Assembly (NCBI GenBank): GCA_016182795.1 | Contig: JACPFW010000026.1 | Location: 11,905 to 75,904 of the forward strand | Length of the DNA: 64,000 nt | Direction of reading: 5' to 3' | Source of the DNA: Gemmatimonadota bacterium | GTDB lineage: Bacteria > Gemmatimonadota > Gemmatimonadetes > Gemmatimonadales > Gemmatimonadaceae | Part shown: piece by piece, positions 20,258 through 55,295 of the stretch | Layout: every line of letters begins with the position of its first letter | Numbering within the stretch: position 1 is the first letter of the stretch | Notes under the pieces: generated by a model | What the model was told of the DNA's origin: nothing | The model's database searches: none | The model's input: only the letters and a program-made list of their open reading frames with translations | Made by a program: the position numbers and the translations under genes

Positions 20258-20430
20258 CAGCAGAAGAGCACAGACAAACACGGAGTAGCACGGAGTACCA
20301 CACATCACGACGGTCGGCACCACGACCCGAGTGCTCTGTGGTACTCTGTTCTTTTCTGTGCCCTTCTGTGCCCTTCTGTGCCCTTCTGTGCCCTTCTGTG
20401 CCCTTCTGTGCCTTTCTGTGCTATTCTGTT
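20258..20430. repeat. Intergenic low-complexity palindrome whose 3' arm is a 10-mer tandem array (CCCTTCTGTG x5 perfect plus about 5 degenerate units)
   Basis: The 5' arm is cagcagaagagcacagacaaacacggagtagcacggagtaccacac. The 3' arm is gtgctctgtggtactctgttcttttctgtg followed by the 10-mer units at 20361-20410. The arms are partially complementary. The element fills the whole fasciclin-glycosyltransferase gap. Confidence 0.9.
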
Positions 20431-30709: not shown

Positions 30710-31663
30710 ATGTCTGTCATTGCTGACGCGCACGACGCCACGACTATCACCGTGAGACAGCCGCAGCCCGAACACCTCCTCCGCGGACACCTCCTTCTTG
30801 CCACCGATGGCACCGCCAGCGCCGACGGCGCGGCGGGGCTCGTGGCGGAGTCGTGTCGGCGCGGCGCGGCGCAGGTCAGCGTGTTGGCGGTCTTTGAACC
30901 GGCGCCGATGCCCGTTCCCAGCGCCGATCCGTCGCTCGCCGCCATGACGACGATGAGCGGCGACACCGCGCTGCGCGACGAGTTCTTCGCGCGCGTGGAG
31001 CGGCAGGCGGAACGCTGCTTCGCGGGCTGTCCGCGCGTGGAGATCGAGCGGGTCGAGGGGTCGCCTGTGCGCGCCATCGTCGAAGCGGCGGCCACGATGG
31101 ACGCCGACCTGATCGTGACCGGCCTTCGCGTACACTCGCTGATGGACCGCCTCGTCGGCGACGAGACGGCGCTGCGCGTCACCCGGGCCACCGATCGCCC
31201 GGTCTTTGCCGTGGCGCCAAGTCTCACGCAGCTGCCGCGGCGGGCCGTGGTCGGCATCGACTTCTCCAAGGCGTCAATGCGCGCCGCGGCGGTCGCCGCC
31301 GGCCTGCTCGCCACCGGCGGCACGCTCACGCTGCTGCATGCCCTGCCGCGCTTCGACGCCACAGCGGTCAGTGAGGACGGCACCGACCTGCCGTTCGCGC
31401 GCGGCGTCACGGCGGCGCTCGACAGCCTGCGCGCGTCACTGGCCGCGTCCCATCCGGACATCACGGTTGCCATCGAGCGCCGCGACGGTGAGGCCGCCGA
31501 GGCCGTGATGAACTATGCCATCGCCGCCAAGGCCGACTTCGTCGCCGTCGGCCGCCACCGCCGCAGCGCCATCGCCCACGCCGTCCTCGGCAGTGTCGCC
31601 ACCACGCTGCTGCGCAAGGCGAAGTTGTCGGTGTTGGTGATGCCGCCGGTGGACAGCGATTGA
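30710..31663 (+). CDS. Tandem universal stress protein (two UspA domains)
   Basis: ATG 30710 is preceded by GGAG. Two repeats of the Usp pattern are present (...ADLIVTGLRVHS...; ...ADFVAVGRHRRSAIAHAVLGSVATTLLRKAKLSVLVMP). Confidence 0.8.
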   Translation: MSVIADAHDATTITVRQPQPEHLLRGHLLLATDGTASADGAAGLVAESCRRGAAQVSVLAVFEPAPMPVPSADPSLAAMTTMSGDTALRDEFFARVERQAERCFAGCPRVEIERVEGSPVRAIVEAAATMDADLIVTGLRVHSLMDRLVGDETALRVTRATDRPVFAVAPSLTQLPRRAVVGIDFSKASMRAAAVAAGLLATGGTLTLLHALPRFDATAVSEDGTDLPFARGVTAALDSLRASLAASHPDITVAIERRDGEAAEAVMNYAIAAKADFVAVGRHRRSAIAHAVLGSVATTLLRKAKLSVLVMPPVDSD

Positions 31664-31810
31664 GGATATGGACCTTGGATTGCGATTGCGGATCGCGATT
31701 CGTGATATCGATTAGCGATGAGGGGCGGCCGAATTGGCCGCCCCTCAATCGTTCATCGCAATCCTATATCGCAATCCCAAATCGCAATCCTGAGTCCAAA
31801 TCCCAAATCA
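31664..31810. repeat. About 147-bp imperfect palindrome of 13-nt words (ATCGCAATCCnnn) with a central perfect GC hairpin
   Basis: The left arm is ggatatggaccttggattgcgattgcggatcgcgattcgtgatatcgattagcgat. The centre is gaggggcggcc-gaatt-ggccgcccctc (31720-31746). The right arm is aatcgttcatcgcaatcctatatcgcaatcccaaatcgcaatcctgagtccaaatcccaaatc. The element fills the entire gap between the convergent genes. Confidence 0.9.
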
Positions 31811-35644: not shown

Positions 35645-38452
35645 CTACTTGATGATGTTCAGCGTGTAGGCCAAGGCGTTGACGTAGCCGATCGTGCCCG
35701 CGGCGTTGTAGCCAACCGCAATCACGTTCGTCGTATTCGTCGCCGTGAAGCCGAGCTGCGAGTACAGCGTGGCGCCGCTGATCGCGGCCGACCACGTGAA
35801 CGTACGCACCGCACCGTTGTCCGTCAGCACCGGCGTCGTCGCCGTGCCGATGAGGCGCATTTCGGTGCCCGCAGCGCCGCCGTTGTTGGCAGCCCAGAAC
35901 TCAACACGCGAGAACGGGTTGTTGTACGTGGCCGTCGGGCCCGTCGAAACAACACTGAGCGTCCCCGAAGCCGGGTTGGCCGTCGTCGCGGCAGTGGTGA
36001 CGCCGGACGAAATGTTGTTCGACGCGATGCTGTTGGTAACCGCCGGGAAGGTCGCCAGACCCGTCGGGGCGAACACGGCGAGCGCCGGCGAAACGGCCGG
36101 AGCGGCAGCCGCGGCACCCGTCACCAGCATGAGACCCTGGTTGGTCGCATTCGCTTCCACGGTGGCCAGCGGATAGAGCGTACCACCGAACTGCAGCGCA
36201 AGCGGCAGGTTGAACACCGCCGACACGGCGTAGTTCGTGTTGACGAAGGTCGCGGCATTGAAGCCGTTGACCGTCGTCGGGGTCGTGTTCGCAAAGCGGA
36301 CCGGCTGCGCCGACGGACCAACCACGAAGGTGCTAACACCACCGATCGCAGCGTAGTCGCCGGAGAACCAGTAGTTCGCGATATCGAGCGCGTCGTTCAG
36401 GAAGGCACTGCCGGTCCAGCCGATCGTCGAAACCGTGATCGGAGTGGAAACATTGCCGACCGTCAGCGCGCCGTTGTCGAGGACAATGGTACGCGCCGAA
36501 ACCGAGGCCGAGTTGCCGGCCGCGTCGAACGCCGTCGCGTTGAACGAGTAGTACGCGTCCGTCGTGAGAGCCGTAACCGCCGTCGAATACAGCGGGGCAG
36601 CCGCAACGACACCCGTCGCCGACAACACGCCAGCGGTGGTCGCAGCCGTGCCGTTCGCGTTGAGCGGGTTGTTCGTGCCCGCGCTGTTCGCCGTGCCAGC
36701 CACGCGCTGCGTGATCTGCATCGTAACCGGGGCCGTCGGGGCCATACCAGAGTTGCCGACCAGACCCGTGTCGTTCACCGTCACCACGAACTCACCAGCG
36801 ATCGTGGCCGTGCTCTTCTGCGCGTTCGCAGCAAGCGACGTCGCATCGTAGGCGATGGTCGGAGCCGCGCGGTCAACGCCGAACGGAACCGAGGCGGAGC
36901 CAGCAACCGGCAGGGCATAACCAGCCACCGCGGTCGGAGCGGCGCACGTGCCACCCGGGTTCGCCGTCTGCGTGTTACCAAGCACGTCGGCCGTGTAGAC
37001 GATACCGCAATAGCTCGCGTTCGTCGCCGAAGCGGCAAGCGTCGTCGGGTCGGCGATCGCCGCAGCCGTCTTCGCCGCAGTGTAGGTCGCACCAACGCGA
37101 ACGTTGTAGGTGATTGCGCCACCGATGCCAGCGTCAACGACCGTCGCGGCGATCGCGCCGTTCGGGTTGCCCGCCGCCGTCACGGTGTTGAGGCTCACCG
37201 CATCATTGATCCAGTTGCCGGTACGACCGTTGACCGCGAGGGCGGCGATGAGGCCGGCCGTCGGCGGAGCAACGTTGTCCCAGCGCAGGCCGGTCTGCGT
37301 GCCGATGATGCCGGCAGGCGTCGTGGCCGTGCCGGCCAGCGTCAGGTTGTCGCCGGCCGAGTTGGTCGCGGTAACGGTGACCACGTTCGGGAACGTGGTG
37401 ACGCAGCCAGCAGGCGACTGAAGGCCAGCCAGCGTGCCCGTGATCACGTAGACGTTGTCCGTCTTGGTCGTCGCGGTGCCGATAGCGCCAACTGCGCCGA
37501 CGCAGGTCGAGCCAGTCGCGGGATTGGCCGAAAGCGCGGCAGCAACCGTACCGATCGACGAGCCAGAGTACAGCACCGGAAGCGCGTTAACCGTGAGCGA
37601 GCCGTTGCCCGTCCAACGATAGCCGGTGCCGTCAACCGCCGACGTGCCACCGCTCGTCGTAATGGCAAAGCCGTCAACGTTAGCGAGCGTCAGGGTCTGC
37701 GTGACCGAGGCGCTGGCCGCCTGCGACGAACCGCTGGCGACGGTGTAAACCTTCGCCTGCAGCGTCGTGGCGCCGTTCAGCCAGGTCGGGACGCCCGTGG
37801 TGGCGTTGAACGCCGCCGTGTTGATCATGGCAACGATCTGCGGGAACGTCGTCTGCGCCGCAGCGGCCTCGTCGGCCGCATAACGGAGCGCGGCAGCCTG
37901 GGCCGCCGTGAACGTCTGCGAGTAGGCGACAACGCTTCCGAACAGCACTTCAACCTTGCTGATCGTCTGGTTGCCCGGGTTGACGTTGACCGTCACGTCG
38001 ATCGGGCCGGCGACGGCAGCCGGGTTGACCGTGCCGTTCAGGTTGCCCGAAGCGGTGATCGAGTTGATCGACACCGTCGCCGGGATCGTGGCGACCGGCG
38101 GCGACACGACGACTGTAGCGCAGCCCTTCTTGCCCGTATCAACCGTGGACGTCGCGCAAACGGCGATGCCCGGGTTGCCCGTGGCCGGAGCCGTGAAGAC
38201 ACCAGCGGACGTGATCGTGCCGGCCGAGGCCGTCCACGTCACCGTCGTCGCCAGGCCCGCGTCCGCGTTGACCGCGGCCGTGAACGTGATCGACTGACCA
38301 GTCGAGACCGTAGCCGTCGCCGGCGACACTTCGACCGAGTTGACCTTTGACTGCGTCGGCGGCGGCGTGTACTCCTGCACCGTCACCTTGTCGCCGCACG
38401 CTGCGAGCAACGCAGCGCCAACGACGAGAATCGTCTTACGAGAGAAGTTCAT
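35645..38452 (-). CDS. Large Thr/Ala/Gly/Val/Asn-rich surface lipoprotein with an N-terminal bacterial Ig-like (Big_2-type) domain; possible S-layer or adhesin protein
   Basis: ATG 38452 gives MNFSRKTILVVGAALLAACGD (lipobox). VNSVEVSPATATVSTGQSITFTAAVNADAGLATTVTWTASAGTITSAGVFTAPATG matches the Big_2 pattern. The remaining roughly 800 aa are low-complexity and beta-rich. The track start at 38647 is rejected. Confidence 0.7.
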   Translation of the reverse strand: MNFSRKTILVVGAALLAACGDKVTVQEYTPPPTQSKVNSVEVSPATATVSTGQSITFTAAVNADAGLATTVTWTASAGTITSAGVFTAPATGNPGIAVCATSTVDTGKKGCATVVVSPPVATIPATVSINSITASGNLNGTVNPAAVAGPIDVTVNVNPGNQTISKVEVLFGSVVAYSQTFTAAQAAALRYAADEAAAAQTTFPQIVAMINTAAFNATTGVPTWLNGATTLQAKVYTVASGSSQAASASVTQTLTLANVDGFAITTSGGTSAVDGTGYRWTGNGSLTVNALPVLYSGSSIGTVAAALSANPATGSTCVGAVGAIGTATTKTDNVYVITGTLAGLQSPAGCVTTFPNVVTVTATNSAGDNLTLAGTATTPAGIIGTQTGLRWDNVAPPTAGLIAALAVNGRTGNWINDAVSLNTVTAAGNPNGAIAATVVDAGIGGAITYNVRVGATYTAAKTAAAIADPTTLAASATNASYCGIVYTADVLGNTQTANPGGTCAAPTAVAGYALPVAGSASVPFGVDRAAPTIAYDATSLAANAQKSTATIAGEFVVTVNDTGLVGNSGMAPTAPVTMQITQRVAGTANSAGTNNPLNANGTAATTAGVLSATGVVAAAPLYSTAVTALTTDAYYSFNATAFDAAGNSASVSARTIVLDNGALTVGNVSTPITVSTIGWTGSAFLNDALDIANYWFSGDYAAIGGVSTFVVGPSAQPVRFANTTPTTVNGFNAATFVNTNYAVSAVFNLPLALQFGGTLYPLATVEANATNQGLMLVTGAAAAAPAVSPALAVFAPTGLATFPAVTNSIASNNISSGVTTAATTANPASGTLSVVSTGPTATYNNPFSRVEFWAANNGGAAGTEMRLIGTATTPVLTDNGAVRTFTWSAAISGATLYSQLGFTATNTTNVIAVGYNAAGTIGYVNALAYTLNIIK

Positions 38453-38792
38453 GGAACCCCCAGTGGAGTAAACTGCAAAAAACCATCGCGAAAACCTGCC
38501 CTTGCTCACGTGCAACGTCTCCATCCACGGTAAGACGTCCTGGCAAGGTAAAAACACACTGCTGGCCAATCTCGTGGAATATGACGACGGTGCGGACAAC
38601 TCGCAACCCCAATTGGGGTCGCGGCTTGGCCCGCTCCACCGACACATTTCCGTCGCCCAGACCGGCCAGCCACCCTTATAGTGGTGATCGGACCGGGAGC
38701 CAAAACCTACGACTCCCGAAAACTCCCGTCAAGCAAGTTGGCGGTAGACAGGCACAACGTAGGGACGAACAGCCTAGGCCTGGGTAACTGCT

Positions 38793-38909
38793 CGGAACGG
38801 GGAGGGGGCCGGGACTCAGGGACGGGTGAAGTGAGGGGGGACGGGCGAGGCGTTTCTCGGTCCCCCTCACGTCCCCCCTCGCCTAGTCTCGGCCCCCCTC
38901 CTCGTTCCG
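38793..38909. repeat. Copy 1 of a 117-127-bp G-tract/C-tract palindromic element (termini CGGAACGrGGAGGGGGGCCGGGACT ... AGTCyCGGCCCCCCTCCyCGTTCCG)
   Basis: cggaacggggagggggccgggact...agtctcggcccccctcctcgttccg read directly. The right arm overlaps the last 9 codons (including the stop) of rnhB. Confidence 0.9.
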
Positions 38910-39533
38910 AGCGCCGTTCGTCTCGGCGTTCCGCAGAATCCCCTCACAGAACTTGGGCCGATGATGCGCTGTCATCCCCCTCGCTCTCAGCGCACTCATA
39001 TGCACCGGCGTTCCGTACCCGGCGTTCTGCTCCCACCCGTACCCAGGGTGCCGCGCGGCGAGCGAACGCATCAGGCAATCGCGCGCCACCTTGGCCACAA
39101 TGCTCGCGCACGCAATTGAATAGATGCGCGAGTCGCCCCCCACGAAGGCACGGTGTGTCACCCCCAGCGTCTTGATGGGCTTGCCGTCCACCAGCACTTC
39201 ATCGGGATGTTCACGCAGGCGGCGCAGCGCACGGCGCATGGCGAGTGCCGTCGCCTGATAGATGTTGAGCGCCTCGATCTCGCGGACGCTTGCCGCCCCG
39301 AGCGCCACACACAACGCCGCACCGCGGATCTTCGCCGCGAGCCGTTCGCGCTGGGCGGCGCTCAGCTGCTTGGAGTCGGCGACGCCAGCGATGGCGCGGG
39401 CCTCGGGCGGCATGATGACGGCGCAAGCAAAGACGGGGCCCGCAAGCGGGCCCCGTCCGACTTCATCTACTCCGGCAATAAGCCGGGCGCCATCGGCGCG
39501 CAGCGAGCGCTCCACCGCGCTCCAGCGCGCCAT
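38883..39533 (-). CDS. rnhB: Ribonuclease HII
   Basis: IAGVDEVGRGPLAGPV...ADSKQLS...IVAKVARD...GYGT are the RNase HII catalytic motifs. The C-terminal ...ARNEEGGRD and the stop are encoded by the repeat element. Confidence 0.9.
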   Translation of the reverse strand: MARWSAVERSLRADGARLIAGVDEVGRGPLAGPVFACAVIMPPEARAIAGVADSKQLSAAQRERLAAKIRGAALCVALGAASVREIEALNIYQATALAMRRALRRLREHPDEVLVDGKPIKTLGVTHRAFVGGDSRIYSIACASIVAKVARDCLMRSLAARHPGYGWEQNAGYGTPVHMSALRARGMTAHHRPKFCEGILRNAETNGARNEEGGRD

Positions 39534-39539
39534 GCGCGA

Positions 39540-39920
39540 TTACGCCTGTTCCGCCGAGCCGGTGACCGGCACCGCGACACGCACCTTCTTTTCCTTGATG
39601 CGCGTGGCCTTGCCGGTGAGTTCGCGGAGATAGAACAGCTTGGCGCGGCGGACACGGCCGCGGCGCACGACGCTGATCGACTCGAGCATCGGCGAATGCA
39701 GCGGGAAGATGCGCTCGACGCCGACGCCGTTGCTGATCTTCCGCACGGTGAACGTGGCGCTGACGCCCGCTCCCTTGCGCGCGATCACGACGCCTTCGAA
39801 CGCCTGCACGCGCTCCTTGTCGCCTTCCTTCACCTTGACGTTCACGCGCACCGTGTCGCCGGCGCGGAACGGAGGAACTTCCTTGAGCCACTCTTTCTGC
39901 GTTTCCATGAAGACATGCAT
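39540..39920 (-). CDS. rplS: 50S ribosomal protein L19
   Basis: ...[35 protein letters not shown]...[22 protein letters not shown]...RRAKLFYLR. The start is ATG 39920 or ATG 39908. The track ORF start at 40178 translates the repeat element and is rejected. Confidence 0.9.
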
Positions 39921-40024
39921 ATGACGATTCCAGCGTGAGGAGGCGTTAGTCGAGCCTTGAAAGCTATTCGGAGCCTGGCCTATCGTCAAGCGCTGCAATT
40001 GCTTGGGGTTAGACAAAACGGCTA

Positions 40025-40141
40025 CGGAACGGGGAGGGGGGCCGGGACTAAGCGAGGGGGGACGGGAGGGGGAACGAGGTACGCCTCGCCCGTCCCACCT
40101 CACTTCACCCGTTCCTGAGTCCCGGCCCCCTCCTCGTTCCG
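40025..40141. repeat. Copy 2 of the G-tract/C-tract palindromic element, with an extra C-rich tail to about 40173
   Basis: cggaacggggaggggggccgggactaag...gagtcccggccccctcctcgttccg. It lies between the protease 3' end (40175) and the rplS start. Confidence 0.9.
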
Positions 40142-40174
40142 AGGCCTCCTCGCTCCCCGCCCGTCCCTCCTCGC

Positions 40175-41350
40175 TCAATACGCCGTGAACAGCAAGTGAT
40201 TATTCGCCGTCTTCGCGCTCGTCACTATCCCCTTGGTCGTCTCCGCGTACAGCGCGTCGCGCACCTGCTGCGCCGTCGCCGTCGGATTGCCCTGCAGATA
40301 GAGGGCGGCCACTCCGGCCACGTGCGGCGTCGCCATCGACGTGCCGCTGATGGTGTTGGTGGCCACGTCGCTCGTGTACCACGACGACGTGATACCCAGC
40401 CCCGGCGCGAACCAGTCGACGCAGTTGCCGTAGTTGGACCACGACGTCTTCCGGTCGCTGCTGTCCGTGGCACCGATGGTCATCGCCGTGCTCACGCGCG
40501 CCGGCGAGTACCGGCACGCGTCCTGCGCGACGCCCGCCTTGTTGCCGTTGCCGGCGGCGACGGCATACGCCACGCCGCTCGCGATCGAGTTGGACACGGC
40601 CTGGTCAAGCGCCGTCGACGCGCCGCCGCCAAGGCTCATGTTGGCCACCGCGGGCTTGGCGGCGTTGGCCGTCACCCAGTCGATGCCGGCGATCACCCCA
40701 GAGGTCGTGCCGCTCCCTGAGCAGTTGAGCACGCGCACGGCAACGAGGCTCACCGCCTTGGCCACGCCGTACGTCGCACCGCCCACCGTGCCGGCCACGT
40801 GCGTGCCGTGCCCGTTGCAGTCGATGCCGTTCTTGCCGTCGCCGATGGCGTCGTAGCCCACCGCCGCGCGCCCGCCGAACTCGCTGTGTGAGGTGCGAAT
40901 TCCGGTGTCGACGATGTACGCGTGCACTCCGCTGCCCGTCGCCGTGTACGTGTAGGAGCCGTCGAGCGGACGCGCGCGCTGGTCGATGCGATCGAGTCCC
41001 CACGTCGCGCCGGTCTGCGTCGTGAAGGCCGTCATCTCCTGGTCGCGCTCGACGTACGCCACCGACGGATCGCGCGCGAGGTCGGCGATCGCCGTCCCGC
41101 TGAACTCGCCGGAGAACCCCTTGAGCGCCGCGCCGTACGTGTGCGTCACACTGCCACCAAACCGCTGCGCGAGACCGACCGCCCTGCCGCGCGGATCGGC
41201 GACATCATCGGTGAAGACGACGATGTAATCAGCGCGGTCGGCAACGGACGCGACGCGAGTCCGGGCGACTGCCGATTCGGTCGGTGAGGATGCGTCGTTG
41301 GCGCAGGCGGCCGCCGCGAGCACGGCGACGGAAAGCACGATTCTCCGCAT
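40175..41350 (-). CDS. Secreted subtilisin-like serine protease (peptidase S8, proteinase K-like) with an I9 propeptide
   Basis: Lipobox/signal LAAAAC. The propeptide is YIVVF...[10 protein letters not shown]...VAYVERD. The catalytic triad contexts are YIVDTGI (Asp), GHGTHVAGT (His) and [12 protein letters not shown] (Ser). Confidence 0.9.
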
Positions 41351-41435
41351 TGGGGGGCTCCAGTGAGGGGAAATGGGAGGGGCGCGAGGGCCCTATTTTG
41401 GACACAATAGGAGACGACTGTGCGATGCACAAGAC

Positions 41436-41562
41436 CGGAACGAGGAGGGGGGCCGGGACTTGGGAACGGGCGAAGAGAGGCGGAACGGGGAGGGCGGTTA
41501 TCGCGTCCCCCTCCATCTCTCTCGGTCGTCGTTCCTTAGTCCCGGCCCCCCTCCCCGTTCCG
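41436..41562. repeat. Copy 3 of the G-tract/C-tract palindromic element
   Basis: cggaacgaggaggggggccgggact...agtcccggcccccctccccgttccg. The right arm overlaps the last 9 codons (including the stop) of trmD. Confidence 0.9.
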
Positions 41563-42204
41563 TTTCTTTGTGAGTCGTACGCCTTCACTCTTCCTCCACT
41601 TCTCAATCTCCGCATGGTGCCCACTCAGCAGCACATCCGGGACCATATGCCCGCGGAAATCGGGAGGGCGCGTGTAACTCGGCGCCGAGAGGCCGCGCCC
41701 GTAGAACGAGTCGCCACGCGCGCTGTCGTGGTCGTTCATCGCGCCGGGGAGTAGCCGCACCACGGCGTCCACAATGCACAGCGCCGCCGGCTCGCCGCCG
41801 GAGAGCACAAAGTCGCCGACGGACATTTCCTCGGTGGCCAGGTGATCGGCGACGCGCTGGTCGACATCCTTGTAATGGCCGCACAGCAGCGTGAGTTCAT
41901 CACCCGCCGCAAAACGCTCGGCGTCGGCATGCGAAAAGACCTTGCCGCGCGGCGAGAGGAGTACGATGGGCGCTTTGGCGCCAAGCGACTCGACGCACTC
42001 GAAGAACGGCCCGGGCTTCATCACCATGCCGGCGCCGCCGCCGTACGGATAGTCGTCGACGGTGCGGTGCTTGTCGTGCGTGTAGTCGCGCAGATCCACA
42101 ACATTGTACGTGACGCTGCCCGCTTCGCGCGCCTTGTCGGGAATGCTCAGCGACAGCGGCCCGGCGAAGAACTCGGGGAAGATCGTGACGATGTTGATCT
42201 TCAT
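41536..42204 (-). CDS. trmD: tRNA (guanine37-N1)-methyltransferase
   Basis: MKINIVTIFPEFF...DDYPYGGGAGMVM...LLCGHYKDVDQRV...SVGDFVLSGGE. The C-terminal ...KRNGEGGRD and the stop are encoded by the repeat element. Confidence 0.92.
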   Translation of the reverse strand: MKINIVTIFPEFFAGPLSLSIPDKAREAGSVTYNVVDLRDYTHDKHRTVDDYPYGGGAGMVMKPGPFFECVESLGAKAPIVLLSPRGKVFSHADAERFAAGDELTLLCGHYKDVDQRVADHLATEEMSVGDFVLSGGEPAALCIVDAVVRLLPGAMNDHDSARGDSFYGRGLSAPSYTRPPDFRGHMVPDVLLSGHHAEIEKWRKSEGVRLTKKRNGEGGRD

Positions 42205-45834: not shown

Positions 45835-45888
45835 CGTTCAAAGATAAGCGGTCGGGGCCGGGTTTTGGGCCGGCGTCCGAGCTATTCA

Positions 45889-46052
45889 GGACACTGAATT
45901 CACGGAGGGCACGGAGGACACGGAGATCACGGAGGACGGCAACTTCTTGGGGGAACAACGAACACCACGCGGGGCATTGCGCGGCGCGCGCAGTTCCTCC
46001 AAGAAGTTGTAGTCCTCCGTGTCCTCCGTGTCCTCCGTGAATTCTGTGTCCT
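45889..46052. repeat. 164-bp imperfect palindrome with arms made of 9-mer tandem units (CACGGAGGA x4 / TCCTCCGTG x3)
   Basis: ggacactgaattc CACGGAGGG CACGGAGGA CACGGAGAT CACGGAGGA cggcaacttcttgg ... ccaagaagttgtag TCCTCCGTG x3 aattctgtgtcc. It lies in the divergent ffh/lon intergenic region. Confidence 0.92.
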
Positions 46053-53556: not shown

Positions 53557-54366
53557 TCCGTCATCCGACTTGCGCGCAGTGTCGTTCCCTGCCTCTTGCT
53601 CTGCACTTCAGCTTGTGCTGTCTCGACGCAGCAGGAAGTCGAGATCGGCACCAACTACGCCTCGCAGATTGCCAAGGAACTGCCCCTCATTCAGGACGCC
53701 GAGGTCAACCGGTACATCACGACGCTCGGCCTGTCGCTGGCCCGTGTCGCCGACCAGCGAAATCTCGACTGGCACTTCCACGTTGTCGATAGCAAAGAGG
53801 TAAATGCTTTCGCCGTCCCCGGGGGCTACATCTACGTCAATCGCGGACTGATCGAACGCGCCACCAATATGTCGCAGGTCGCCGGGGTGCTCGGCCACGA
53901 AATAGGCCACGTCACCCGCCGGCACAGCGTCAAGCAGATGCAGAAGGCCCAGGGGACGAACATCGGCGCCACCCTGCTCTGCACACTGACGGCGGCGTGC
54001 AACTCGGGGCTCGCGCAAACCGCCGCGCAGATTGGCGCCAGCGCCGCGTTTGCGAAGTTCAGTCGGACCGACGAGGCCGAGGCTGACGACGAAGGACTGC
54101 GCTACGTGGTGAAGGCCGGGATCGACCCCAACGGCATCCCCGAGATGTTCGAGATCCTGGAGAAAGAGCGGAAGGAGAAGCCGACGTCGATGGACCTGTG
54201 GTTCGCGTCGCACCCAATGGAGGAATCACGCATCGCCGACACGCGGGCCGCGATCGCCAAGCTGCCGCCTGACCAGCTGAAGGGACTGGTGAAGGACACG
54301 AAGGAGTTTCAGGCGTTCAAGAAGCGGGTGATGGCACTGCCGGCGCCGCCCCCGACGAAGAAGTGA
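53548..54366 (+). CDS. M48-family zinc metalloprotease lipoprotein
   Basis: Lipobox LLCTSAC. NAFAVPGGYIYVNRGL...GVLGHEIGHVTRRH (HExxH)...EAEADDEG. Confidence 0.88.
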   Translation: MGHSVIRLARSVVPCLLLCTSACAVSTQQEVEIGTNYASQIAKELPLIQDAEVNRYITTLGLSLARVADQRNLDWHFHVVDSKEVNAFAVPGGYIYVNRGLIERATNMSQVAGVLGHEIGHVTRRHSVKQMQKAQGTNIGATLLCTLTAACNSGLAQTAAQIGASAAFAKFSRTDEAEADDEGLRYVVKAGIDPNGIPEMFEILEKERKEKPTSMDLWFASHPMEESRIADTRAAIAKLPPDQLKGLVKDTKEFQAFKKRVMALPAPPPTKK

Positions 54367-54456
54367 GGGTAGAAGCTAGAAGGTAGAGGGTGGATGGTTG
54401 AAGGTAGAGACTTCCTACCATCTGCCATCCACCTTCTACCATCGGCCTTCCGCCAC
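54366..54456. repeat. Palindromic pair of heptamer arrays (6 x AAGGTAG type, 7-nt spacer, 6 x CTACCAT type)
   Basis: agggtag aagctag aaggtag agggtgg atggttg aaggtag / ctaccat ctgccat ccacctt ctaccat cggcctt ccgccac. The pair fills the whole gap between convergent genes (stops at 54364-54366 and 54459-54461). Confidence 0.92.
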
Positions 54457-54458
54457 CA

Positions 54459-55295
54459 CTAAAGTCCCGCCACGAATTCCGTCACCAACGCCACGAACTT
54501 CTCACCGGCGGCCTCGGCGGCGCGCATCACGTCGGCGTGGCTGAGCTTCTCGGGTGACAGGCCGGCCGCGGGGTTGGAGATGAGCGAAACGCCGACGACC
54601 TCGAGCCCCATCGCGTTGGCGAGAATCACCTCGGGCACGGTGCTCATGCCGGTGGCGTCGGCTCCCATCCGCTCGAGCATGCGCACTTCCGCGAGCGTCT
54701 CGTAGGTCGGCCCGAGCAGGCCGACGTACACGCCCGCCTGCAGCGGCAGATGCAGCCGCTGCGCTGCCTCGCGAAGCAACGCCTTGAGCCGCGGAGAGTA
54801 CGGCGCGCTCATGTCGGGGAATCGCTCGTCCGTCGACTCCACCGGCCCGGCGAGCGGGTTCACGAACTGCAGGTTGATGTGGTCCTCGATGACCATCAGG
54901 TCGCCGGCGCTGAACGTGCGGCGGATGCCGCCGGCGGCGTTGGACACAAAGAGGCACTTGGCGCCGAGGGCATGCACAACACGAACGGGGAACGCGCTGA
55001 CCTGCGGAGAATGCCCTTCGTACATGTGGAACCGGCCGGCGAGCGCCACGACTTCGCGGCCGCCGAGCGTCCCGGCAATGAATTGCCCTTTGTGCCCCAC
55101 GACATTGGTCGTGTGGAAGCCGGGGATCTCCGCGTACGGCAGGCGCTTGGCATTCTCGATGCGATCGGCGAGTCCGCCCAGACCGGAGCCGAGGATGATG
55201 GCGCAGGCCGGCGCGTTGACGCCGAGCCGTTCGCGAATGACGGCAGCCGCCTCGCGTGCGGCCACGACGCCGTGGGTCCCCTGGGCAGCACTCAC
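54459..55295 (-). CDS. Purine nucleoside phosphorylase (trimeric PNP/MTAP family)
   Basis: ILGSGLG...GHKGQFIAG...GRFHMYEGH...NAAGG...GPTYET.AE...GADATGMSTVPE are typical PNP-I family motifs. Confidence 0.9.
   Translation of the reverse strand: MSAAQGTHGVVAAREAAAVIRERLGVNAPACAIILGSGLGGLADRIENAKRLPYAEIPGFHTTNVVGHKGQFIAGTLGGREVVALAGRFHMYEGHSPQVSAFPVRVVHALGAKCLFVSNAAGGIRRTFSAGDLMVIEDHINLQFVNPLAGPVESTDERFPDMSAPYSPRLKALLREAAQRLHLPLQAGVYVGLLGPTYETLAEVRMLERMGADATGMSTVPEVILANAMGLEVVGVSLISNPAAGLSPEKLSHADVMRAAEAAGEKFVALVTEFVAGL

Follow-up and report, generated by a model that had tools for sequence, protein, structure and literature searches.

A 64,000-nucleotide (nt) stretch of DNA from an uncultured, soil-dwelling Gemmatimonadota bacterium of the family Gemmatimonadaceae (assembly GCA_016182795.1, contig JACPFW010000026.1, positions 11,905–75,904; hereafter the window, 68% G+C) raises the question of why two unrelated housekeeping genes, trmD and rnhB, end in almost the same eight amino acids. 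TrmD ends ...K-R-N-G-E-G-G-R-D, closed by a TAA stop at 41536–41538, and RnhB ends ...A-R-N-E-E-G-G-R-D, closed by a TAG stop at 38883–38885. Each ending lies within a copy of an imperfect palindrome that is present three times in the window. The copies are 117–127 nt long, have a G-rich and a C-rich side and carry the termini CGGAACGRGGAGGGGG...CCCCTCCYCGTTCCG. As set out below, the tails are translations of the repeat arm. The repeat itself is probably a low-copy, dispersed hairpin element of Gemmatimonadaceae that resembles REPINs (doublets of repetitive extragenic palindromic (REP) sequences) and terminal-inverted-repeat (TIR) miniature inverted-repeat transposable elements (MITEs), and that occupies the 3′ ends of transcription units, where it encodes protein tails.

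The tails of TrmD and RnhB are repeat-derived

The genes and palindrome copies concerned are as follows.

41536–42204, minus strand: trmD (222 amino acids (aa)), start MKINIV, overlapping the rimM stop
41436–41562, no strand: copy c3 (127 nt), directly after trmD and overlapping its 3′ end
40025–40141, no strand: copy c2 (117 nt), between the S8 peptidase stop and the promoter-like region of rplS
38883–39533, minus strand: rnhB (216 aa), from the sequence and the list of open reading frames (ORFs)
38793–38909, no strand: copy c1 (117 nt; the palindrome reaches 38790–38912), overlapping the rnhB 3′ end

The outermost 27 nt of the arm (38883–38909 and 41536–41562) supply the last eight codons and the stop of both genes. 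Specifically, TrmD codons 215–222 (RNGEGGRD, 41539–41562) and the TAA lie inside the c3 arm, and RnhB codons 209–216 (RNEEGGRD, 38886–38909) and the TAG lie inside the c1 arm. Counted from the arm terminus CGGAAC, the two genes use one and the same frame, CGG-AAC. An initial annotation, made from the sequence alone, had placed the final codons and stops of both genes inside an arm and in one frame, and this is correct to the base.

A 24-nt arm pattern, allowing at most three mismatches, finds four matches in the window and none in 100 shuffles, so the repeat stands far above chance and is real; looser criteria recover all six arms of c1, c2 and c3. The arms are 78–91% complementary within copies, the terminal 16–25 nt are mutual inverted copies, and element lengths span 117–141 nt. 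Copy c2 matches c1 at 92% identity in inverted orientation and at 72% in direct orientation. In the mRNA sense, all three copies are predicted to fold into highly stable RNA hairpins, at −104.8 kcal/mol for c3 (z = −11.2), −91.4 kcal/mol for c2 (z = −6.4) and −91.9 kcal/mol for c1 (z = −6.2).

Recognizable homology to known proteins ends before the tails begin. The Pfam domain tRNA_m1G_MT covers TrmD residues 23–215 of 222, and alignments to TrmD structures in the PDB mostly end at residue 215 (range 209–218). Likewise, RNase_HII covers RnhB residues 20–196 of 216, and PDB alignments end at residue 195. The alignment with orthologues that the initial annotation had proposed as a check of its claim of repeat-derived tails therefore comes out in favour of that claim, with homology stopping at about TrmD residue 215 and RnhB residue 195.

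A survey of the 120 closest TrmD relatives (82–96% identity) and of 120 RnhB relatives leads to the same point. TrmD is conserved as far as ...GER(L/R)T+x+R and is divergent beyond it, where the relatives have no tail (...RRTRERE and stop, 216 aa) or end in RNGEGVEA, RNEDGVEA, GDGTGRR, DGGGVRGLGTE or EGGGGVQRRGKE. RnhB relatives end in ...G(V/I)L, or continue to LRNGEGVEA, LRNGEGVGA or GDGGGVRGLGAE, and the two protein families draw on a common set of tail types. The exact ending GGRD is otherwise found only in the TrmD of the window and in one PAP2 protein (ERGGGRD; protein sequence only). The initial annotation had suggested looking for the same in-frame capture in other copies, and this is borne out for PAP2 phosphatases, whose RNGEGVEA or RNGEGVGA tails end inside an arm at loci L015 and L132, where the stop of a convergent peptidase gene lies 0–15 nt past the other arm of the element; it does not hold for the TrmD of locus L011, which runs into its arm in another register. 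Most PAP2 homologues lack the tail. An RNxEGGRD ending in a genome without the element, which would have pointed to conservation of the protein itself, was looked for and was not found among the relatives compared.

Thus, the tails are repeat-derived rather than a case of protein-level conservation, and the core idea of the initial annotation is right, although its interpretation as a whole is partly supported. It had also proposed that the element replaced the native termini of both genes. Nothing conserved has been lost, however: in TrmD and RnhB the tail is essentially an extension of 7–16 residues past the last conserved codon. The junctions may have arisen when the element inserted within the final codons, or when a native stop beside an abutting hairpin was lost.

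A natural deletion at the rnhB site of locus L007 reveals which sequence provides the stop. There (L007:13334–13349) a clean internal deletion of the palindrome has reduced the element to its two 8-nt termini, head to head (CGGAACGG and CCGTTCCG), and RnhB gains 13 unrelated residues before the next stop. Because collapse of the element lets the ORF continue for 13 codons, it is the arm and not the gene that provides the rnhB stop. Annotated C-termini of core proteins such as TrmD, RNase HII and a PAP2 phosphatase can thus be repeat-encoded and can vary among near-identical species. In a little-studied and mostly metagenomic phylum, this should be borne in mind when genes are annotated, when orthologues are aligned and when 'variable C-termini' are interpreted.

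Stable sites with changing hairpins

Seven related loci (L005–L011) were fetched and their DNA was read. In all seven, trmD, rnhB and, where present, the S8 peptidase gene are each followed by a long hairpin that passes from G-rich to C-rich, and the sequence of the hairpin is genome-specific. The arm type of the window, CGGAACGGGGAGGGGG(G)C...GGGACT, is also that of L010. Loci L006, L007 and L011 have the arm CGGAACGRGGAGGGGGTAGAGGCGTAG, which gives the tail RNGEGVEA or GTGRR, and L005, L009 and L008 represent three further families of G-rich hairpins. In L005, both genes end in DGGGVRGLG(T/A)E, encoded in an arm unrelated to that of the window, and in L008 the TrmD stop falls just ahead of the hairpin. 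Throughout the seven loci, the tail is the translation of that genome's own arm or is absent, so that orthologues either end at the junction or carry a tail that matches their locus.

Copies within a genome resemble each other more than they resemble copies at the corresponding sites of relatives. Identity among the three copies of the window and among the three of L006 is 0.79–0.91, and all within-genome pairs average 0.73; between genomes, the mean is 0.61 for the same site and 0.62 for different sites. Furthermore, the type of hairpin does not follow the relatedness of TrmD. Loci L007, L011, L009 and L005, in which TrmD is 94–95% identical to that of the window, carry other hairpin variants, whereas L010, at 91%, carries the hairpin type of the window. 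Because within-genome similarity is the higher and variant type is independent of TrmD relatedness, this comparison of sequences indicates turnover of the copies, putatively by re-copying or gene conversion. Hairpins that keep their sites while their sequence is replaced bear on how REPIN-like populations persist.

Some sites also hold fragments of arms. The remaining features of the locus are given here.

40175–41350, minus strand: S8 peptidase gene, between c3 and c2
40142–40174, no strand: G/C-rich spacer with an extra partial arm, between c2 and the S8 stop
39540–39920, minus strand: rplS (126 aa; Pfam Ribosomal_L19)
38910–38933, minus strand: possible relic of an older arm in rnhB (CGGAACGCCGAGACGAACGGCGCT, encoding RNAETNGA), by comparison with L010, L006 and L011

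On the minus strand, the gene order is rpsP, rimM, trmD, the S8 peptidase gene, rplS and rnhB. RnhB of L010, L006 and L011 ends directly in (I/L)L-RNGEG..., and L011 has a tandem partial arm beside a full copy that is comparable to window positions 38910–38933. Those positions might tentatively be read as a relic arm that keeps the ancestral ...IL-RN junction and is followed by the full copy c1. Partial tandem arms of this kind, in the window and in L011, fit repeated arrival at one site. Next to c2, positions 40155–40175 are 90% complementary to 40051–40071 and overlap the S8 stop codon by one base. This stop (TGA, 40175–40177) is the gene's own and lies 33 nt ahead of c2, so no capture occurs there.

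Gene content varies between trmD and rplS (window positions 40175–41435). In L005 and L008 this spacer is free of genes; the window, L006 and L010 have an S8 peptidase gene there. L009 and L011 have an AAA-like gene (orf408) as well as the S8 gene, and L007 retains the S8 gene but only the two ends of orf408. The inserted genes mostly come with their own hairpin copy, the exception being the spacer between orf408 and the S8 gene in L011. The possibility that orf408, which lies beside the S8 gene in L009 and L011, is a transposase was considered and rejected, as it shows weak AAA-ATPase matches only.

These comparisons also allow a reading without mobility, in which the hairpins would be old, terminator-type structures that evolve rapidly by slippage in G-runs and self-correction of the palindrome and that convert their neighbours, the shared tail reflecting conversion tracts that take in the last codons. 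Such a reading accommodates the greater similarity within genomes than between orthologous sites, the presence of a hairpin at the same sites in every genome read, even where the sequences cannot be aligned, and the clustering of all three window copies inside 2.8 kb. It also draws on two unrelated hairpins of the window that likewise run from stop to stop between convergent genes. However, copies of the same variant family turn up at unlinked places, including PAP2/S9 peptidase and a rodA-like gene, the family of the element is independent of TrmD relatedness (L007, L011, L009 and L005 versus L010), and the partial tandem arms beside full copies (38910–38933 and L011) look like repeated arrival. 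We therefore regard non-mobile hairpins as unlikely, albeit deserving some weight.

The two unrelated hairpins merit description in their own right. The first (31651–31809; 160 nt, about −102 kcal/mol, with GATTGCGAT-type motifs) lies between a Usp gene on the plus strand (stop 31661–31663) and a LuxR-type response regulator gene on the minus strand (stop 31808–31810); it covers both stops, and the last four codons of the Usp gene are inside its arm. The second (54362–54460; purine-rich to pyrimidine-rich, about −65 kcal/mol) spans exactly the interval between two stops, that of an M48 peptidase gene (54364–54366) and that of a convergent nucleoside phosphorylase gene (54459–54461). Because these hairpins, unrelated to the trmD–rnhB element, run from stop to stop, hairpins that abut or overlap stop codons are a general habit of this genome.

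Reading frames of the arm

The shared register of trmD and rnhB has an ordinary explanation in the stops that the arm itself carries. In frame 0, a TAR stop occurs at offset 24, with TAA or TAG present in half of the arms and the others one mutation away. In frame 1, the GTAG-containing variant of relatives has a TAG at offset 16, and frame 2 meets no stop for over 100 nt. Protein clusters among relatives are distributed accordingly: 22 use frame 0, nine use frame 1 and none uses the open frame. The TrmD of L011 is an example of frame 1, in which GA-CGG-AAC-GGG is read as D-G-T-G-R-R-stop.

With two genes only, and with two of three frames providing an early stop, agreement in frame has a chance of 1/3 to 1/2, and the common register of trmD and rnhB is not statistically striking alone. 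Related genomes share with the window both the TrmD junction, ...R|RN, and the RnhB junction, ...(I/L)L|RN. The two captures in the window are therefore two old events and give no sign of a register-specific mechanism. The shared register is thus not a rule of the system.

It is accordingly very unlikely that the element is a site-specific insertion sequence that targets last codons in a defined register, with capture built into its mechanism. Frame 0 does dominate in three independent genes (trmD, rnhB and PAP2), and the junctions always consist of an Arg, Lys or Leu codon followed by CGG-AAC. Against this stand the nine protein clusters in frame 1, including the TrmD of L011, and the many gene ends that, among the copies examined, lie 0–35 nt outside the element and have their own stop (S8, the rodA-like gene, L087 and L101). 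The flanks share no common target sequence or duplication, and three sites in one frame have p of roughly 0.1 even before selection against the frame that lacks a stop is considered. The suggestion in the initial annotation that the element targets gene ends thus holds for position, in every context seen, and fails for targeting in a defined register.

If the element is, as we think probable, a dispersed repeat residing at the ends of transcription units, the tails would arise in the following way. The element is composed of two inverted arms between the termini given above, and on either strand its 5′ side is the G-rich one. In trmD and rnhB it starts right past the last conserved codon with no stop before it, and the ribosome would enter the 5′ arm. 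As the arm consensus has stops at fixed positions, ORFs in those frames end after five to eight repeat codons, and frame 0 through the same arm places RN(G/E)EGGRD on both proteins. The tail would be a tolerated by-product on an unconstrained C-terminus and not a functional module. Re-copying or gene conversion would keep the copies of one genome alike; the corresponding sites of sister genomes hold other variants.

The position of the copies suggests what the hairpin might do. Downstream of each copy, at a distance of about 5–40 nt, the next gene has a conserved TTGNNN-N17-TANNNT motif, identified by eye, which would place the hairpins at the ends of transcription units. For example, TTGACG-N17-TAGCTT precedes rplS just past c2 and is kept in all loci read (by eye); rplS is the first gene of the rplS–rnhB unit, which ends in c1. 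For the transcript upstream, the stable predicted hairpin would probably define or protect the 3′ end, or insulate it from the next promoter-like motif. Translation that ends inside the stem may also affect expression, by analogy with REPs of Escherichia coli.

Likeness to known repeats, and spread

The element works like REP, REPIN and MITE hairpins, although it cannot be shown to belong to any particular one of these families. It shares with REPs and REPINs two inverted units with a stable predicted hairpin and an extragenic position after convergent or same-direction genes. It shares with TIR-type MITEs its terminal inverted repeats and a length within about 100–400 nt. However, the GTAG/CGTC head that REPs carry at the 5′ end is missing. 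The window copies start with CGGAAC and have no GTAG, and in the variant of relatives GTAG lies 15 and 23 nt inside the arm rather than at its end. The target-site duplication expected of TIR-type MITEs is absent from the flanks of 20 copies of the Gemmatimonadaceae type (40 arm sides), some of which merely prolong the palindrome.

REPINs of the REPIN/RAYT (REP-associated tyrosine transposase) system reportedly consist of two inverted repeats that form a hairpin of about 100 nt, lie in extragenic positions and cause no target duplication. Their populations are said to be genome-specific and to differ between related strains. To our knowledge, REPINs are not noted for overlapping coding ends. 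The present element differs from them in that no RAYT was found among 19 window ORFs or in related loci, and in that it gives no sign of hundreds of copies.

Stop codons supplied by repeats have published counterparts. GTAG-tagged REPs are located between genes that converge or run in the same direction, beside the 3′ ends of ORFs or overlapping them, and donation of stop codons by REP termini has been reported (Di Nocera et al. 2013, PMC3733652). Similarly, the variant of relatives carries GTAG twice (GGGGGTAGAGGCGTAG), and both TAGs are used as stops. In contrast, those REPs are 20–40 nt long, usually exceed 100 per genome and have GTAG at the extreme 5′ end, whereas the present element is 117–141 nt long, apparently low in copy number and conserved at its terminus CGGAAC, and is GTAG-free in the variant of the window. 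In Coxiella burnetii, the hairpin MITEs QMITE1 and QMITE2 lie over the 3′ ends of functional genes such as pntAA, mutT, nagZ, ruvB and enhC and confer C-terminal residues, a stop or both, with little change in protein size (PMC5896051). They have direct repeats of 2–11 nt at their ends, which were not found for the present element, and about 50 copies per genome, and both the organisms and the sequences are unrelated to those described here. Because stops and tails supplied by repeat termini are already documented for REPs and MITEs, the shared tails reveal no new mechanism.

Effects on translation have been described for E. coli REPs, which, when located within 15 nt of a stop, stall terminating ribosomes and lower expression (Liang, Rudd and Deutscher 2015, as cited in PMC12306157). 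Those REPs are downstream of the stop, whereas the stop considered here lies 24 nt inside a hairpin of a predicted −100 kcal/mol or so.

Metagenome contigs place the Gemmatimonadaceae type in five or more additional gene contexts, among them the PAP2/S9 peptidase pair, the rodA-like gene and others, and the genes involved are convergent or in the same direction. Where a flanking gene can be called, its stop is inside the copy or within 35 nt of it, a distance that shrinks to at most 15 nt if the S8 site is left aside. None of the copies examined lies between divergent starts; L058 has no callable gene end.

Several results weigh against the element being a dispersed repeat with a role at transcript ends. 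Only three copies are present in the 64-kb window, all within 2.8 kb, and extra copies were not found in the 12–20-kb loci of relatives. A scan of 185,579 representative genomes for the window-specific arm gave three matches, mostly attributable to chance: two are inside coding sequence and chance-like, and the third could be a distant relative. Neither a Pfam scan of 19 window ORFs nor the Pfam tables of related loci showed a transposase or RAYT. A consensus scan of 38300–42000 found no terminator-like site, and the stems are not followed by a U-tract or T-rich tail; a terminator role is suggested by position and predicted hairpin stability. Curated RNA families were also sought with Rfam, in the 36–44 kb part of the window and in six loci, and only sub-threshold, generic miRNA-precursor hairpins were returned.

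An integron-type arrangement, in which the copies would be attC-like sites and the S8 gene, with AAA-like orf408 in some genomes, a cassette between trmD and rplS, is extremely improbable. The copies do resemble attC sites in length (117–141 nt), in being imperfect palindromes with AAC...GTT triplets near their termini, in following ORFs and in being alike within a genome and unlike between genomes, and the presence or absence of the S8 gene and orf408 between trmD and rplS recalls cassettes. However, c1 and c2 have opposite orientation (92% identity inverted, 72% direct), the copies lie between convergent, conserved chromosomal genes, and the termini depart from RYYYAAC/GTTRRRY past the AAC/GTT triplets, which alone fit. 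Furthermore, the S8 gene has a conserved promoter-like upstream region of its own, and no integrase is present in any annotated locus, nor was one found among the 19 window ORFs scanned with Pfam. We rejected this arrangement because of the orientation of the copies, their genomic context and the lack of an integrase in annotated loci.

Finally, a native and selected C-terminal motif, or frameshifting assembly errors in G-runs, is scarcely credible as the source of the tails, since, although tails starting with RN(G/E)(E/D)G recur in many relatives, the similarity runs past the stop through about 100 nt of non-coding palindrome, the tails vary with the local variant of the element, tail-less orthologues exist and identical proteins come from independent assemblies. 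Specifically, an independent assembly (Logan SRR12113422) encodes an RnhB identical to that of the window, and the TrmD sequence of the window belongs to a seven-member protein cluster, which makes errors in G-runs unlikely.

A scan of metagenomes for both termini at the right spacing yielded at least 120 loci, and among those listed about 110 represent a different, high-copy element of Sphingomonas. BLAST of this element against plasmids matched only Sphingomonadaceae, at up to 32 places per replicon, and a limited literature search found no published description of it. It is like the Gemmatimonadaceae element in its terminal 16–19 nt (CGGAACGGGGAGGGGG...CCCCCTCCCCGTTCCG), a match that is the search pattern itself, so that homology between the two is not established by it. 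Also alike are its length of 116–145 nt and its G-rich to C-rich layout. It differs in having an extra outer repeat (TCCTCCC/GGGAGGA), a conserved inner box (GGTGGAGGGG) and two hypervariable side hairpins, in its high copy number and in belonging to another phylum, and genes are almost never read into its copies. Long ORFs that an automatic filter reported as reading through Sphingomonas-type copies were set aside as probably spurious open frames of high-GC DNA.

The stability of sites with unstable sequence, together with the termini common to the Sphingomonas repeat, is the most interesting remainder. A broader reading would treat CGGAACGRGGAGGG-terminated hairpins of Gemmatimonadaceae and Sphingomonas as one system, moved or converted by common machinery, with arms selected for stops in two frames, which would let them fit flush with or within the ends of essential genes, and acting as portable, ORF-capping 3′-end modules in which translation that ends inside the stem tunes terminator or stabilizer activity. 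We hold this to be quite improbable. If it were true, the system would exist at low copy number, fixed at 3′ ends and replaced variant by variant, in Gemmatimonadaceae, and in hundreds of copies in Sphingomonas.

The Sphingomonas element (loci L012–L131, for example L053:2664–2792) has its own organization: (A)AWTCCTCCC-CGGAACGGGGAGGGGGACC-hairpin-GGTGGAGGGG...CCCCTCCACC-hairpin-GGTCCCCCTCCCCGTTCCG-GGGAGGATT. Its side hairpins comprise 121 distinct sequences among 197, and 110 of these 121 are still near-complete hairpins, mostly with G(A/C/T)A loops. One Sphingomonas-type contig also contains an unrelated ZMP/ZTP riboswitch outside the element (L013:1144–1224; 61.8 bits against a gathering score of 39).

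Further structures occur elsewhere in the window. The genes ffh and lon, which start divergently, are separated by a near-perfect, 165-nt palindrome with CACGGAGGA-type units (45888–46052; about −143 kcal/mol when its flanks are included). Because the corresponding spacer in L006 is just 110 nt, this palindrome looks like a lineage-specific insertion. At 20261–20400, a hairpin begins 4 nt past the stop of a fasciclin-domain gene and is followed by at least four tandem GTGCCCTTCT units. Adjacent to c1, a leader of about 280 nt (38455–38760, minus strand) precedes a gene for a 935-aa surface protein. Its mean column identity over seven loci is 82%, whereas the adjacent hairpins cannot be aligned. 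The leader has no Rfam match; its predicted structure has an invariant, long-range helix of 12 base pairs and compensatory changes in eight pairs, making it a candidate cis-regulatory RNA.

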